Part shown: piece by piece, positions 11,977 to 56,966 of the stretch
How positions within the stretch are numbered: the stretch's first letter is position 1
Layout: the number at the start of each line of letters is the position of its first letter
Sequence record: MT446392.1
DNA from: Escherichia virus TH15
Length of the DNA: 64,000 nucleotides
Strand: one strand, 5' to 3'
Notes under the pieces: model-generated
What the model was told of the DNA's origin: nothing
Database searches by the model: none
Seen by the model: only the letters and a program-made list of their open reading frames with translations
Made by a program: the position numbers and the translations under genes

Positions 11977-12455
11977 TTATGAATATTAAATTTGGTCAGA
12001 CCATCCCTAAAGGTTATGTGATTGAAATTGAAACCTGGGAAAATGATGGTGACAACTATAAAACCCAGACAATATTTGGTGTAGAAGAACAAGAAATCCA
12101 GCAGTACAAATATATCCTGGAACTTTTTCAAGGCTCTCATTGTAACTATCCAGATAAATGTGGTAATTCAGAATGGGACGTAGTTAAAGACTTTCTTATC
12201 GCACACATTGAATCTGGTGTAAAATCTGGTCAATTAACTCCTGAATTCATTAACAAAACACTTTGTATTGAAAATCTGGAAAACCTGGTTGAAGGTGACA
12301 ACGGCCAGGAATTTGAATTATTGTGTTCTCTCCAGGAATTGCTGGGCGAGCCGGTGGAATATGATAGCGTTTTGCGCGTAGTTTCGTGGGTAAAATTATA
12401 CATCATCGAAGAAGAAATCCAAATACCAAACGTTAAAGCACTTAATATGCTTTAA
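11973..12455 (+). CDS. hypothetical protein
   Basis: 160-aa ORF, start overlaps upstream stop (possible start at 11979). Confidence 0.45.
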   Translation: MIMNIKFGQTIPKGYVIEIETWENDGDNYKTQTIFGVEEQEIQQYKYILELFQGSHCNYPDKCGNSEWDVVKDFLIAHIESGVKSGQLTPEFINKTLCIENLENLVEGDNGQEFELLCSLQELLGEPVEYDSVLRVVSWVKLYIIEEEIQIPNVKALNML

Positions 12456-12533
12456 GAGTTATGTGTTATTATTAATAAGTACCCTCTATTACCAAAGGTT
12501 CTTCCCTCAAAGAACCTCTCATAATAGAATTAA

Positions 12534-12607
12534 GGCCCTGTAGCTGGACGGTCAAGCGAGCGACTCATAATCGCTGGATGGTGGTTCGATTCCACCCAGG
12601 GCCACCA
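12534..12607 (+). tRNA. tRNA with anticodon CAU (Met, or Ile if lysidine-modified)
   Basis: Hand-folded cloverleaf: acceptor GGCCCTG/CAGGGCC, anticodon stem AGCGA/TCGCT with loop CTCATAA, T-arm GGTGG-TTCGATT-CCACC, encoded CCA. Confidence 0.7.
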
Positions 12608-12741
12608 AACTTATTTTAAATTATCATGGCGATAGGTATTGTAGATGCGGTTCGATTCCGTCCGGGGTAAGTGCCCTAGCATGCTTGGAGCATGAGTGAC
12701 TTAATATTGGTGGTTCGAGTCCACCCCGCTATGAACAAACA
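12608..12741 (+). other. tRNA-like remnants or small structured RNA: two T-arm-like hairpins without a complete cloverleaf
   Basis: GCGG-TTCGATT-CCGT (about 12647-12661) and GGTGG-TTCGAGT-CCACC (about 12709-12725); no matching acceptor strands found by hand. Confidence 0.3.
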
Positions 12742-12817
12742 CGAGGCATAGCTCAGAAGGAAGAGCAAGGACCTTCTAAGTCCTAGGTCGTAGGTTCGAT
12801 TCCTACTGTCTCGACCA
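12742..12817 (+). tRNA. tRNA-Arg (anticodon UCU)
   Basis: Hand-folded cloverleaf: acceptor CGAGGCA/TGTCTCG (one G-U), D-arm GCTC/GAGC with GG loop, anticodon loop CTTCTAA, T-arm GTAGG-TTCGATT-CCTAC, encoded CCA. Confidence 0.75.
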
Positions 12818-13132
12818 AACAAGAAACCGGGTCGCTACCGGTAAGTCGTCGGACTGAAGTTCCCTGTTTAAGGACTGACATTAATAAATCTTTATGTTTT
12901 GTTAATGACCCCTTATCTCACAGCTGAAACGGCGCACCTAATTATCGATTCGAGGAAATATCTTTGCCGTAAGCCGAGTGGCGTTTTTGACGGAACGTTC
13001 GGATATGGTCGAGATATGGCCTTTTAAAAATATTGAGTAGCGTCAACTACTTGATAACCGGGTTCGAATCCCGGCGTATCGTACAAACACTTGCCTAGCA
13101 GGTGGAACCCCGACAAGGTTACCCTAGGTTAA

Positions 13133-13161
13133 AGCCCCTCCCGAAAGGTTGGGGCTTTTTT
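13133..13161 (+). terminator. rho-independent terminator after the tRNA/RNA cluster
   Basis: Hairpin AGCCCC-(12 nt loop)-GGGGCT followed by TTTTTT. Confidence 0.6.
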
Positions 13162-13168
13162 ATAAATA
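13161..13168 (+). promoter_or_regulatory. possible late promoter TATAAATA
   Basis: Exact TATAAATA about 27 nt upstream of the ATG at 13195. Confidence 0.3.
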
Positions 13169-13194
13169 TAACGTACCCATAACTAAGGAAATTT

Positions 13195-13749
13195 ATGAAA
13201 CTTTTAAAATATCTAAGCTGGATTCTGTTAGTGCCACTGGATTTCATTTCAATGATTCTGGCTGTTATCCTTGCACCATTTGTAGTGCCGTTCCATAACA
13301 AAAAGACTGGTAAGCTTCCGTTCGGATTTGACTGGATGATGACATACGATAATCCAATTGATGGTGACCGTGGTCATGTTAAACGTTGGGAAAAAATCAG
13401 AAAATGGCCGTTAGGTGTTTACTTCCAGCGAGTGGCCTGGCTCTGGCGAAATAAAGCCTACAATTTTGCTTATCATAAGCTGGGTCGCGATTGCGATTCT
13501 AAATTCCATTATAAAGGTAATCCTGATGTTGAATCGGGCTCCCCGGATAAAGCTCACCATGGCTGGCTCTGGATGTGGAATGATAATGCATGGGGCGTGT
13601 TCGCTTCCGTACCTTATCTTAAAGTTGGTGGAATCACCTTTTATCTGCGCGTGTATTGCGGTTGGAAGCTCAAAAGTCTTCTGTCCCGTCCTATCCCGAA
13701 AGCTATGTTAGCCTTTCATATCAATCCCTTCCGTTTTTATAAGAACTAA
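13195..13749 (+). CDS. hypothetical membrane-anchored protein
   Basis: 184 aa; N-terminal hydrophobic segment; SD ctaaggaaa upstream. Confidence 0.5.
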   Translation: MKLLKYLSWILLVPLDFISMILAVILAPFVVPFHNKKTGKLPFGFDWMMTYDNPIDGDRGHVKRWEKIRKWPLGVYFQRVAWLWRNKAYNFAYHKLGRDCDSKFHYKGNPDVESGSPDKAHHGWLWMWNDNAWGVFASVPYLKVGGITFYLRVYCGWKLKSLLSRPIPKAMLAFHINPFRFYKN

Positions 13750-13752
13750 TCG

Positions 13753-13777
13753 AACCCGCTCCGGCGGGTTTATTTTT
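13753..13777 (+). terminator. rho-independent terminator
   Basis: AACCCGC-TCCG-GCGGGTT followed by T-tract. Confidence 0.6.
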
Positions 13778-13796
13778 AATATTTCTTCAAAAAGTA

Positions 13797-13826
13797 GTGT
13801 ACATCCGGATTGACCGGGTGCATAAT
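13797..13826 (+). promoter_or_regulatory. early promoter cassette: -35 GTGTAC, -10 CATAAT, ACTGAGTTAC-type leader
   Basis: GTGTAC, 18-nt spacer, CATAAT; leader GATTCCATACTGAGTTAC shared with cassettes at 14864, 33166 and 33755. Confidence 0.5.
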
Positions 13827-13876
13827 GATTCCATACTGAGTTACACACTGAATCACAAAAACTTTGGAGAAATAAA

Positions 13877-14302
13877 ATGAACTTTCTGACCCTGACCTCT
13901 GCATTCTCTGTTACCCGCATCACTAACAAAATGGTTGCTGATGAAGTATGTGAAATCTGCATTCGTGAAGATGCACTTATCCATCTGACTTCAACCCAAA
14001 TTGTTGCCATCGCCAAGTCCCTTAATTCTGAACTGAAGGTAAACACCAAACAGTCAAAAGAATCCATCATTGAATTAATCCAAGCTGAAATGATTGAATT
14101 CCCAATTGAAGAAGTTAAAGAAGAAAAAATCCAGTCCAAATCTGGTAACGCCCGTGACATTTGCTTCCAGGCATTTGCAGAAATTGATATGAATGATAAT
14201 GCAGCTCGTCGCGCTCTGATTGATGACCTGGTTACTACCCATGATATCAAAAAGACTGTTGTTCAGTCTTATGCTTCCAACTTCCGCAAAGCTCAAAAAT
14301 AA
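13877..14302 (+). CDS. hypothetical protein; C-terminal domain shared with the next gene (...VVQSYASNFRKAQK)
   Basis: 141 aa; C-terminal 45 aa paralogous to the C-terminus of 14386..14829. Confidence 0.5.
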   Translation: MNFLTLTSAFSVTRITNKMVADEVCEICIREDALIHLTSTQIVAIAKSLNSELKVNTKQSKESIIELIQAEMIEFPIEEVKEEKIQSKSGNARDICFQAFAEIDMNDNAARRALIDDLVTTHDIKKTVVQSYASNFRKAQK

Positions 14303-14313
14303 TTGAGAAAAGT

Positions 14314-14349
14314 GTTTTACTTCCAAGTGGGATAGTGTATAATTATCCC
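14314..14349 (+). promoter_or_regulatory. early promoter cassette: -35 GTTTTAC, -10 TATAAT inside palindrome GGGATA...TATCCC
   Basis: 17-nt spacer; palindrome flanks the -10. Confidence 0.55.
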
Positions 14350-14385
14350 ATACTGAGTTACCAAATAAACAAACGGGATAATAAA

Positions 14386-14829
14386 ATGAAAACTTCAAAA
14401 CTGGTTAAGTACGTTAAACTGGCATTAAACAACTCTTCTGAAGCTGAAGCGCAATCCGCAGCGCGTATGTTCTTCAAACGTCTGACAGCTGAAGGTATTT
14501 CATTTAACCCGGCAGTATTTGGTATCACTCGTGGCGAAGCTGCTAAACTGGCAACTCTGGCAGGTAAAATTTTTAAAGGTCTGAATGATGGACAGGTTAA
14601 ACCAGAAGTTAAACCTACTCCTAAAGCTGAACCAAAAGCTGAGTGTAAGGCACCTAAACGCTCCGGTATGAGCAACAAAGATTTATGCTATGATATGTTC
14701 AAAACTGTTAATATGTCTAATGGTGCTGCTCGCAGAGCTGTTATTGATATGATTGTGCGTGAGTTTGGATTCAACAAAGCATCAGTTCAATCTTATGCTT
14801 CCAACTTCCGCAAAGAATTTGAAATTTAA
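14386..14829 (+). CDS. hypothetical protein; C-terminal domain shared with the previous gene (...SVQSYASNFRKEFEI)
   Basis: Start placed at Met 18 of ORF 14335..14829 (MKTSKL..., SD gggataa); earlier ATG lies inside the promoter. Confidence 0.5.
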   Translation: MKTSKLVKYVKLALNNSSEAEAQSAARMFFKRLTAEGISFNPAVFGITRGEAAKLATLAGKIFKGLNDGQVKPEVKPTPKAEPKAECKAPKRSGMSNKDLCYDMFKTVNMSNGAARRAVIDMIVREFGFNKASVQSYASNFRKEFEI

Positions 14830-14836
14830 TTCAAAA

Positions 14837-14861
14837 AGGGGGTATACAAGCCCCCTGCTTT
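14837..14861 (+). terminator. hairpin terminator whose loop carries the -35 of the next promoter
   Basis: AGGGGG-TATACAAG-CCCCCT then GCTTT; loop contains GTATAC positioned 18 nt upstream of CATAAT (14866-14871). Confidence 0.5.
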
Positions 14862-14910
14862 AAGGCATAATGATTCCATACTGAGTTACCAAATAAAACT
14901 GGAGAATAAA

Positions 14911-15216
14911 ATGAAATTCATCATCAACCTGGCGCTTGTTGACTTTGATAAAACTGGTAATTTCGCATCTGCTGAAAATATGATTCGCAACACTAAGTTC
15001 AAAGTGCAAGTCCAGCAGGCGGTAGCAAAAGAGTTCTTTACTGATAAATTAACCCACGTTGTCAATCACCTGAATGTGCAAGTTAAATTCACTCGTAAAG
15101 CAGAAACTACAGTTGAATTTGATTTTGAATGTCGTTACCATGATGAATATGTTCGCCGCATCCTTAATATTGTATCTGATGAACTTTACTATGGTGTGCA
15201 GGAAAACAAAATCTAA
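14911..15216 (+). CDS. hypothetical protein
   Basis: 101-aa ORF behind a promoter cassette; SD ctggagaa. Confidence 0.5.
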   Translation: MKFIINLALVDFDKTGNFASAENMIRNTKFKVQVQQAVAKEFFTDKLTHVVNHLNVQVKFTRKAETTVEFDFECRYHDEYVRRILNIVSDELYYGVQENKI

Positions 15217-15220
15217 ATCA

Positions 15221-15256
15221 GTGTACGCTTTAACGGGAACATGATAGTATGTTCCC
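15221..15256 (+). promoter_or_regulatory. early promoter cassette: -35 GTGTAC, -10 TAGTAT bracketed by inverted repeat GGGAACAT/ATGTTCCC
   Basis: 18-nt spacer; 8-bp perfect inverted repeat around the -10. Confidence 0.55.
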
Positions 15257-15292
15257 TGGATAATAAAACATTAACCAACTGAAGGAAATACC

Positions 15293-15886
15293 ATGAATAC
15301 TTTAAAGAAACTTGTTGAATTCATCCGCTCCAAACTGGGTACTGCAATGGCACAAAACCTGTCTATTGAAGACCAATATACTAAAGCGGCAACAACCCTG
15401 ATTGACAAGATTACTGAGCTCCAGACTGCCCACGTTAAGTCTGTTAATGAAGAAAAACGCATCCGCGAGTTAGCGAATGAAAAAGACCAGCTCGCTGCTT
15501 CAAAAGAGCGTGAAATCCGTAAACTGATTGCTGATGGTGCTGATGTTCAGGTCCATGCTAAACTAGGTCTCCTGTATCGCCACACGGCTAAACAACTTCG
15601 TAAGAAGGCAGATGATTATGTTGAAATGCGTAATGAAATTAAATTGAAAGTTAAAGAGCTGGATGATTCTCGTCAGGAACTAGCTGTTAAACTGGAATAC
15701 ATCCGCGAAACTCGTAAGGTATCTGCCCTGGGTATTGCGACTGCAGATGATGTTGTTGAAATCGCTGCATTGACTAAGATTGATATTGAAGACACTCTGA
15801 TGCGTGTTGAAACCTTCAAAGGCCCACAGGTTGGTGTGGATACCACATCCGCTGACATTGAAGAATACATCAATTCACTTAAGTAA
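15293..15886 (+). CDS. hypothetical coiled-coil protein
   Basis: 197 aa, charged and helical composition. Confidence 0.5.
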
Positions 15887-33173: not shown

Positions 33174-33213
33174 GATTCCATACTGAGTTACCAAATAAAA
33201 ACGGGAGAATAAA

Positions 33214-55801: not shown

Positions 55802-56966
55802 TTATAATGCTGATTTTACAGAAGAACAAATCGAATACTTAAAAACTTTGTCTAAAGATGAATTGGAACACCATTTATACAATTCTCAAATGGCTGAAGT
55901 AGCTGCAAACACCGCGCAGATTAACCGTAAACTGCTTATCAATAGCTGTTATGGTGCTCTGGGCAATATCTGGTTCCGTTACTTTGACCTGCGAAATGCA
56001 ACTGCGATTACATCTTTCGGGCAACTTGCATTGCAGTGGATTGAGCGTAAAGTTAACGAATACTTCGATAGTGTTTGTGGTACAAGTGGTGAGACTTACG
56101 TATTCTATGGCGATACTGACTCCATTTATATCCAGTGCGATAACCTGATTAAAAAGGTTGGTGGTGAATCTAAATTCCGCGATACAAACCACCTGGTTGA
56201 CTTCATGGACAAGTTTGCAAAAGACCGTCTGGAACCGGCAATTGATAAAGCTTTCCGTGAACTGGCCGAATACATGAACAATAAACAGCACCTTATGTTT
56301 ATGGACCGTGAAGCGATTGCATGTCCTCCGCTGGGTTCTAAAGGCGTGGGTGGATTCTGGACGGCGAAGAAGCGTTATGCGTTGAACGTGTATGATATGG
56401 AAGGCACACGATATGCTGTTCCGAAACTGAAAATTATGGGTCTGGAAACTCAAAAGTCGAGCACTCCAAAAGCATGTCAGAAAGCTCTGAAAGAATGTAT
56501 CCGTCGCATGCTGCAAGAAGGTGAAGAATCTCTGCAGACATACTTCAAGGAATTCAATAAGGAATTTAATGAGCTTAACTACATGACCATCGCAGGTGTA
56601 TCATCGGTTAACAACATCCAGAAATATAATGAGGGCGGTTTCCCTGGATTTAAGTGCCCGGCTCATATCAAAGGTGTGCTTGCATATATGCGTGCAACTA
56701 AAGGGCTGAAGACTGTTCCGCAAATCATGGAAGGGGAAAAGGTGTATGTGCTTCCTCTTAAAGTTGGTAATCCGTTTGGCGAAACCGTGATTGCGTGGCC
56801 ATCAGGGATTGAACTCCCGATTGAAATTCGTGACCAAGTCTTGCAGTGGATGGACTACAACACACTGTTCCAGAAGACTTTTGTTAAGCCATTGACAGGG
56901 TTCTCTGAAGCAGCTAAGGTTGATTACGAGAAAAAAGCATCTCTTTTTGATATGTTTGATTTTTAA
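55791..56966 (+). CDS. 43: DNA polymerase gp43, C-terminal segment (palm/thumb, motif C YGDTDS)
   Basis: Start at Met 11 of ORF 55761..56966; INSCYGALGN and YGDTDSIY polymerase motifs. Confidence 0.85.
   Translation: MNIDYNADFTEEQIEYLKTLSKDELEHHLYNSQMAEVAANTAQINRKLLINSCYGALGNIWFRYFDLRNATAITSFGQLALQWIERKVNEYFDSVCGTSGETYVFYGDTDSIYIQCDNLIKKVGGESKFRDTNHLVDFMDKFAKDRLEPAIDKAFRELAEYMNNKQHLMFMDREAIACPPLGSKGVGGFWTAKKRYALNVYDMEGTRYAVPKLKIMGLETQKSSTPKACQKALKECIRRMLQEGEESLQTYFKEFNKEFNELNYMTIAGVSSVNNIQKYNEGGFPGFKCPAHIKGVLAYMRATKGLKTVPQIMEGEKVYVLPLKVGNPFGETVIAWPSGIELPIEIRDQVLQWMDYNTLFQKTFVKPLTGFSEAAKVDYEKKASLFDMFDF

Follow-up and report, generated by a model that had tools for sequence, protein, structure and literature searches.

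A predicted three-helix module shared by two putative early proteins with unlike N-terminal domains in Gapriverviruses and other phages

We analysed a 64,000-nucleotide stretch of Escherichia virus TH15 (MT446392.1; hereafter the window) in which two adjacent plus-strand genes, A (13877-14302, 141 amino acids) and B (14386-14829, 147 amino acids), encode proteins with a common C-terminal module and dissimilar N-terminal domains. The module, about 52-56 amino acids long and ending in VQSYASNFRK, is predicted to fold as a homeodomain-like three-helix bundle; it sits on two, perhaps three, kinds of N-terminus, and also stands alone. The genes, the matches of their promoters to consensus, the two-domain architecture, the homology of the modules, their phylogenetic spread and the fold class are directly supported by our data. 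The favoured reading as a whole, to which we give an even chance, is that these are early proteins in which a DNA-binding-like module carries differing effector N-termini.

The shared module and its unlike partners

A preliminary description of this locus had presented A and B as a domain-shuffled paralogue pair with a shared C-terminal domain. Both reading frames are present where it placed them, and the C-terminal motif string that it gave is correct: BLASTP of A against B returned one local alignment (A 68-138, B 71-143; 42% identity, E 1e-16), confined to the C-terminal parts. The shared module itself was borne out, and its supposed length of 45 amino acids was too short; it occupies residues 91-141 of A (14147-14299) and 96-147 of B (14671-14826), both on the plus strand. 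At the profile level, A matched phrog_9997 over residues 1-141 (E 9e-72) and B matched phrog_18416 over residues 1-147 (E 8.5e-92), while each protein matched the other's profile over the last ~55 residues only (E ~1e-15). Both also matched a third profile, phrog_17275 (71 amino acids), and all three families are annotated 'unknown function'.

Alignment of the modules showed an invariant C, F and VQSY, with S, N and R/K nearly invariant. The stretch VQSYASN[F/Y]RK, which lies on the predicted third helix, is nearly unchanged among phages of four host genera, Escherichia, Morganella, Erwinia and Acinetobacter; before the predicted first helix comes a short basic arm, and most modules are moderately basic (isoelectric point, pI, 8.7-9.8). 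The window holds two copies only. A tblastn match at 56472-56567 (E 0.035) was discarded as a third copy: it lies inside the DNA polymerase gene and is due to chance. A word-indexed protein search with a 58-amino-acid module alignment gave no match, the query being too short for the index; full-length queries did match.

The N-terminal parts differ, as had been claimed. Comparison of A residues 1-85 with the B region by tblastn yielded no significant similarity (E 2.7), and the N-terminal 85 residues of A and the N-terminal 95 of B were not significantly similar to each other or to anything elsewhere in the window. Structure prediction, which the preliminary description had proposed as a check, gave two domains and a disordered linker in both proteins (AlphaFold2; A from 19 sequences, mean predicted local distance difference test score [pLDDT] 84; B from 6 sequences, mean 74). 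In the A model, an acidic N-terminal domain (residues 1-80, 13877-14116) combines three strands (3-6, 12-16 and 27-30) with helices (31-36, 39-49 and 61-74) of helix-extension-helix-like arrangement, and a disordered linker (84-89) leads to module helices 92-100, 108-122 and 126-140, the last carrying VQSYASNFRK. In the B model the basic N-terminal domain (residues 1-68, 14386-14589) is all-helical (3-15, 19-36 and 49-59) with a weakly DUF2786-like hairpin; a disordered Lys/Pro/Ala/Glu linker (residues 69-95, 14590-14670) is followed by module helices 97-105, 113-127 and 131-145, with module pLDDT of 88-91. The predicted N-terminal folds are therefore different and their sequences dissimilar, which rules out a full-length duplicate that had been misread.

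The A-type N-termini follow the pattern L-x2-L-x3-Q-[LI]-V-x-I-A-K-S-[LM]-N-x-E-L-K-V-N-x-K-Q-S-K-E-x-[IL], corresponding to two helices split by an extended segment. The linker of B is a KPTPKAEPKAE... repeat whose length varies by strain, phage EAWsc9 having eight more residues, or two more PKAE units (L001, 4250-4717); this is probably why the EAWsc9 record names the protein 'H15 domain-containing'. A resemblance of the B N-terminus to T7 Gp2, an RNA polymerase inhibitor (2wnm), was not significant (E 0.36).

Distribution and age of the family

A tblastn search of 50,697 phage records with the module matched 45, of which about 34 were Gapriverviruses, most with three places each. The others were Morganella phages MP1 and Rgz1, Providencia phage PSTRCR_127, Acinetobacter phages ZZ1, Henu6, W16 and 133, and Erwinia phage RF1. 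Translation of the loci revealed both A-type and B-type proteins in MP1 and in RF1, and the A-type only in the Acinetobacter phages. A metagenomic T4-like contig (L012) keeps the gene order DUF7338-A-B, its A and B being 55-62% identical to the window proteins. RF1-like phages do not belong to the T4 type: their ~45-kb genomes encode RusA, a primase and a terminase and portal of another kind, and in them A and B lie next to the terminase gene with one unrelated gene in between. The data suggest that the A/B pair and its promoter moved horizontally between phage types. The intervening gene is HNH/endonuclease VII-like in RF1 (L003, 3719-5191) and an unrelated open reading frame (ORF) of 127 amino acids in the metagenomic relative L009 (5001-6479). 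The promoter of the RF1-like gene A is T4-style, GTGTACA-N17-TACTAT.

The third Gaprivervirus copy, outside the window, is a 71-amino-acid stand-alone module belonging to phrog_17275 (E 7.8e-53 for the solo protein of Shigella phage SP18). In SP18 the gene (L007, 3001-3216) lies between gene 52 and motA. Its own early-promoter cassette stands before it, and only 2 nt separate its end from the start codon of motA, which is thus probably co-transcribed. In T4 no module was detectable; motA.1, which we considered as a solo homologue at that position, encodes an unrelated 49-amino-acid predicted periplasmic peptide.

The preliminary description had also proposed a profile search and a look for the module on other N-termini in related phages, and both were productive. 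When 1.84 billion representative proteins were searched exhaustively with the profile, 16 scored E <=0.001, and 13 of these were true members, a narrow family that corresponds to no curated one. These comprised A-types, B-types, one B-type with a ~60-residue insert (P0031), two proteins with a third N-terminus (P0026 and P0033) and short or solo forms (P0030 and P0035). The third N-terminus gave no BLASTP match to the B-type N-terminus and a weak hhalign alignment to it (probability 59%); it is probably a divergent B-like N-terminus.

In a neighbour-joining tree of the module core, the modules grouped by N-terminal type and not by genome, the exception being P0026 and P0033, whose modules fell next to the Gaprivervirus A module. 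On a short metagenomic contig (L011, 1-1027), the gene after the A-type one is P0026 and not B; its N-terminus contains FNGVPRG, and its promoter cassette is the same. The P0026 module of L011, closest to that of Gaprivervirus A, is possible evidence of real module exchange. A within-genome co-variation of NFRK and NYRK was considered and abandoned: it was concordant in five genomes and failed in L011 (A NYRK, neighbour NFRK) and in the SP18 solo protein (NYMK versus NFRK).

Since both architectures are paired in several phage lineages and the modules cluster by type and not by genome, we conclude that the A/B pair is an old, conserved arrangement of a narrow family and not a recent local shuffle. 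The shuffled-paralogue view thus stands as far as a shared domain on unrelated N-termini is concerned; the event was ancient instead of local, and the family is wider than the pair. The event could have been a fusion, a replacement of the N-terminus or a truncation.

One stretch of DNA might suggest that the resemblance of A and B is a local accident without functional meaning, left by recent duplication or gene conversion within the phage. The 31-nt boxes that encode VQSYASNFRK, GTTCAGTCTTATGCTTCCAACTTCCGCAAAG in A (14261-14291) and GTTCAATCTTATGCTTCCAACTTCCGCAAAG in B (14785-14815), both on the plus strand, are identical at 30 of 31 positions, against ~50% DNA identity in the rest of the module. 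Nine of the ten box codons are the same where window codon usage predicts 4.0 (P ~0.001), which would fit a short gene-conversion tract in Gapriverviruses. Outside the box, however, protein identity between the modules is only 42-50%; across phages, A-type modules cluster with A-type and B-type with B-type; both architectures are kept in MP1, L012 and the RF1-like phages; and box codon identity in RF1 and L009 is at the chance level (4/9). As an account of the whole pair, a recent origin, to which we attach almost no credence, is refuted. In Gapriverviruses the box may have undergone a short conversion or strong selection on its codons, and at most micro-conversion of the box has occurred, which leaves our conclusion on the age of the pair unchanged. 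Inside the coding sequence of A, and overlapping the first part of its box, lies a perfect inverted repeat of 7 bp, AAGACTG-ttgtt-CAGTCTT (14252-14270), which is absent from B; it was flagged on the minus strand by a terminator scan and is probably a chance occurrence.

Predicted fold, early promoters and candidate function

The models fold the module into a bundle of three helices, with helix 2-turn-helix 3 geometry, and its best structural matches were BEN domains and homeodomains. Foldseek against viral models returned family members only, and no annotated protein. A profile of 24 modules gave one match at E <0.1 among all PDB sequences, the ATBF1 homeodomain 2da3 (E 0.008, 19 bits), in register over helix 2-turn-helix 3, the aligned module segment ending ralIdkLvetygfkkrvVQSYASn, with VVQSYASN set on VVQVWFQN. 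In this borderline alignment the conserved Asn would correspond to Asn51 of homeodomains and the Arg two residues on to Arg53, both of which are DNA-contact positions, and the invariant Q, S and S would correspond to positions 46, 47 and 50, which face the major groove. The module alignment can also be read as I-D-x-[LI]-[VC]-x-x-[FYH]-[GND]-[FIL]-x-K-x-x-V-Q-S-Y, which fits the canonical 20-residue helix-turn-helix (HTH) pattern: positions 4, 8, 10, 15 and 18 are hydrophobic, and position 9 is a turn residue. Judged by helical periodicity, several conserved residues should be solvent-exposed on helix 3. Matches to TAL effectors in a first PDB profile search (E 3e-13) were rejected, as the score sums 14-23 repeats that are each insignificant (per-repeat E >400); they disappeared with the better 24-sequence profile.

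From these sequence and model features we infer, at even odds or slightly better, a homeodomain-like HTH in the module, with the invariant third helix as the part that binds nucleic acid. In the favoured reading, A and B would be immediate-early single-gene cassettes between the tRNA genes and e.6, each with a strong sigma-70 promoter and each encoding two domains on a flexible linker. The shared ~52-residue HTH bundle would bind nucleic acid, most likely double-stranded DNA, by way of helix 3, and would anchor different N-terminal domains at one target: in A an acidic domain of beta-sheet and helix-extension-helix, in B a basic helical hairpin and, after it, a Lys/Pro/Ala linker that resembles histone H1. 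The likely role would be to modulate transcription or nucleoid DNA early on, in analogy to the T4 MotB family. That A, B and the solo protein share one target, differ in cargo and act on early transcription or nucleoid DNA is a suggestion we make with lower confidence.

Several observations weigh against a DNA-binding module. The 2da3 match is borderline, and no homeodomain, BEN or HTH model in Pfam was matched at E up to 10 by A, B or 12 isolated modules. More generally, no Pfam, NCBIfam or annotated PHROG family supports any function for A or B, nor does NCBIfam for the solo protein. Solo copies have Met at the Arg53-equivalent position. Some modules, in RF1-like phages, are near-neutral (pI 6.8-7.8), and protein A as a whole is acidic (pI 5.5), which is unusual for a DNA binder.

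This acidity would suit a protein-protein docking domain, the main rival explanation: the module might tether the N-termini to one partner (e.g., RNA polymerase, sigma-70, H-NS, HU or a phage protein), or assemble A, B and solo proteins into hetero-oligomers. The near-invariance of helix 3 over four host genera would also suit a conserved protein surface; A and B occur jointly, and do so even in a phage type that is unrelated; and the solo gene, which lies in the genome's motA/asiA region, is probably transcribed together with motA. However, the module's closest matches, by structure as by sequence, are HTH domains bound to DNA, with the borderline sequence alignment in register with the DNA-contact residues, and the conserved Q, S, S, N, R and K, which should be exposed, are typical of recognition helices and not of hydrophobic interfaces. 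An obligatory A-B complex is unlikely because the Acinetobacter phages carry A alone. We regard docking as unlikely, though more credible than the other alternatives.

The early character of the genes was read from their promoters. Each gene has its own, as the preliminary description had held: a sigma-70 promoter for A at 13798-13826 (TGTACA-17-CATAAT) followed by the start-site/leader motif CCATACTGAGTTAC at 13831-13844, and one for B at 14316-14343 (TTTACT-16-TATAAT), its -10 inside the inverted repeat GGGATA..TATCCC, followed by the same motif at 14348-14361. A third early promoter at 14843-14871 (TATACA-17-CATAAT, again with CCATACTGAGTTAC) drives the next gene (14911-15216); all are on the plus strand. 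The CCATACTGAGTTAC motif occurs seven times in the window at <=2 mismatches, versus 0.3 expected, and the unit repeated at the three promoters reads (AT-rich)-GTGTACA-N17/18-CATAAT-gattCCATACTGAGTTACCAAATAAA-Shine-Dalgarno (SD)-ATG. The cassette also stands upstream of unrelated early genes at 33178 and 33766, and in SP18, EAWsc9, MP1, L011 and L012 the same one lies ahead of A, B and the solo gene. In Acinetobacter and RF1-like phages, gene A has a similar sigma-70 promoter and, at equal spacing, the CAT that is the usual start-site motif at a fixed distance; the long leader is lacking. By promoter type, all copies of module genes would be expected to be immediate-early, as such expression is understood in T4 (PMC2988021).

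Conservation of the cassette runs ~25 nt past the -10 into the transcript, as CATAAT-gatt-CCATACTGAGTTACCAAATAAA-SD-ATG (window plus strand 13831, 14348, 14876, 33178 and 33766). This long-leader form is present in loci L001, L002, L004, L007, L011 and L012, reaches 9-13 copies per Gaprivervirus genome, and is common to the Morganella and Providencia T4-likes. A 35-nt blastn search for the leader found no match in other phage groups save single weaker matches in four coliphage/Shigella phage genomes, and none was seen in the T4 motA region or in the Acinetobacter and RF1-like loci examined.

The leader raises the idea that the module binds RNA, for example the early-transcript 5' leader ACUGAGUUACCAAAUAAA, and that the proteins are post-transcriptional regulators of early mRNAs. 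Module and conserved transcribed leader occur together in Gapriverviruses and in Morganella and Providencia phages, and T4-type phages are known for post-transcriptional regulation of early mRNAs (PMC3014915). Yet Acinetobacter and RF1-like phages have the module without the leader, a few phages have one leader copy without the module, and the co-occurrence comes from two related lineages and is phylogenetically confounded. Moreover, homeodomain-like HTH domains are mainly binders of double-stranded DNA. We therefore consider RNA binding improbable. Still less probable is a more specific version, in which helix 3 reads the phages' own leader element CCATACTGAGTTACCAAATAAA, as DNA or RNA, and A, B and the solo protein are factors that shut off or tune early transcription. 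It would explain the probable transcriptional fusion of the solo gene to motA, and the distributions of cassette and module nearly coincide in the two lineages; the same absence of the leader from Acinetobacter and RF1-like phages, and the same confounding, speak against it.

The remaining features of the two genes concern their borders. A program-made ORF list had extended B to a GTG at 14335; its true start is the ATG at 14386, because every homologue begins there (e.g., P0020, 147 amino acids) and 14335 lies inside the promoter. The terminator scan placed a plus-strand hairpin, GAACCCGC-tccg-GCGGGTTT with a T run, at 13752-13771 after the DUF7338 gene, and this is the stem-loop part of the promoter-terminator cassette of gene A. 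It called none between A and B, where the junction has only the inverted repeat around the -10. On the 3' side of B, the plus-strand hairpin GGGGGTATACAAGCCCCC (14837-14856) overlaps the next early-promoter cassette (element 14837-14889).

By megablast of 13100-15300, which matched ~80 T4-type phages, the window belongs to a Gaprivervirus (Tevenvirinae), an SP18/VR26-like T4-type coliphage; the best matches were Escherichia phages TH22 and TH40 (97%), VR26 and Shigella phage SP18. Genes A and B lie just downstream of two tRNA genes and a DUF7338 gene and upstream of an e.6 homologue, a locus that annotations of related records identify as the e-tRNA hyperplastic region of T4-type genomes. The DUF7338 gene (13195-13749; phrog_2143) has a full-length Pfam match (E 1e-62), and its protein is named 'amidase-6 domain-containing' in one GenBank record. 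ARAGORN called tRNA-Met(CAT) at 12534-12607 and tRNA-Arg(TCT) at 12742-12817, and no tRNA in the 134-nt spacer between them (12608-12741); an Rfam scan of 12400-15400 found the two tRNAs and nothing else. The spacer contains two T-arm-like segments, GGTTCGATTCCGTCC and GGTTCGAGTCCACC, which are probably remnants of tRNA genes that have decayed. Between the Met and Arg tRNA genes of SP18 lies a tRNA-Asn; in EAWsc9 the Met and Arg genes are adjacent, and the CAT tRNA is annotated tRNA-Ile2.

Comparison with known systems

Small HTH proteins and ORFans in promoter cassettes are kinds already known; what is new here is the recognition that three PHROG families of 'unknown function' share one homeodomain-like module, together with its distribution. 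As it stands, the family adds to the uncharacterised accessory genes of hyperplastic regions, which are an ordinary kind of phage gene, and the practical gain is a better annotation for the three families (shared tri-helical HTH-like domain). If the favoured reading is true, small homeodomain-like proteins that bind DNA and are made during the first minutes after infection form an unnamed family, which spans several T4-type groups and one unrelated phage type, and reuses one recognition helix on at least two effector domains and free-standing next to motA. It would be a compact system in which to study how phages join variable effectors to a targeting domain that stays the same, and would supply three candidate regulators for the early phase of SP18-like therapeutic coliphages, which is poorly understood.

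Among known N-terminal domains, the predicted one of A may be compared with the SAP/helix-extension-helix/Rho N-terminal type, having two helices around an extended segment in the model, and an A orthologue is labelled 'rho-N domain-containing protein' in one GenBank record. It differs by an extra three-stranded sheet before the helices; with E allowed up to 10, none of the 19 A-type proteins matched Pfam Rho_N (PF07498) or SAP (PF02037), and there was no PDB sequence match. Six of eight B-type N-termini matched DUF2786 (PF10979) over residues 12-34 (LALNNSSEgEA..AAr.FF; best E 0.02), all below the gathering score (14.4 bits for the window protein versus 23.9). DUF2786 is itself a family without known function; in the four papers that a literature search found for it, it is mentioned once each and never in a title or abstract.

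The module is like the tri-helical domains of homeodomains and BEN proteins (engrailed 1du0, Oct-1 POU homeodomain 1pog, ATBF1 2da3, Bsg25A BEN 4x0g) in being a ~50-residue three-helix bundle with a long C-terminal helix. It shares with homeodomains a short basic stretch before helix 1 and, in a borderline alignment, the placing of Asn and Arg of VQSYASN[FY]R on positions 51 and 53. Unlike them, it has a longer helix 2 (15 residues), Tyr and Ala for Trp48 and Phe49, a much less basic composition and a phage origin, and it lacks the Pfam match that a homeodomain or BEN domain would give.

The gene setting recalls the promoter-early stem-loop (PeSL) cassettes that flank ORFans in hyperplastic regions of T4-type genomes (PMC2839356, PMC4122927). 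The window cassettes conform to that description, with an AT-rich stretch, sigma-70 promoter, SD and ATG before A, B and the next gene, near tRNA genes. Stem-loops lie upstream of or overlap two of the three promoters, as in PeSL, whereas the A-B junction has no terminator-type stem-loop. The window cassette also differs in its unusually long conserved transcribed leader (GTGTACA-N17/18-CATAAT-gattCCATACTGAGTTACCAAATAAA); JS98, JS10 and SP18 are not mentioned in the 2014 PeSL paper (PMC4122927). Recombination or mini-circle shuffling of the flanked ORFs, as in PeSL, may be reflected indirectly in neighbour genes that differ among Gapriverviruses and in the similar promoter on A in RF1-like phages.

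The closest parallel in function may be T4 MotB, an early, non-specific DNA-binding protein that alters H-NS-DNA complexes and whose homologues keep a DNA-binding C-terminal domain under alternative N-terminal domains (PMC7827196). MotB differs from the module in its predicted KOW and OB-fold and shows no sequence similarity to it, the exhaustive profile search having given the module family only. The comparison is one of how the proteins would work: like MotB, A, B and the solo protein would be small early Tevenvirinae proteins of a 'non-essential' region, and the two-domain plan of a conserved C-terminal domain with swapped N-terminal ones makes MotB what would be their nearest functional precedent.

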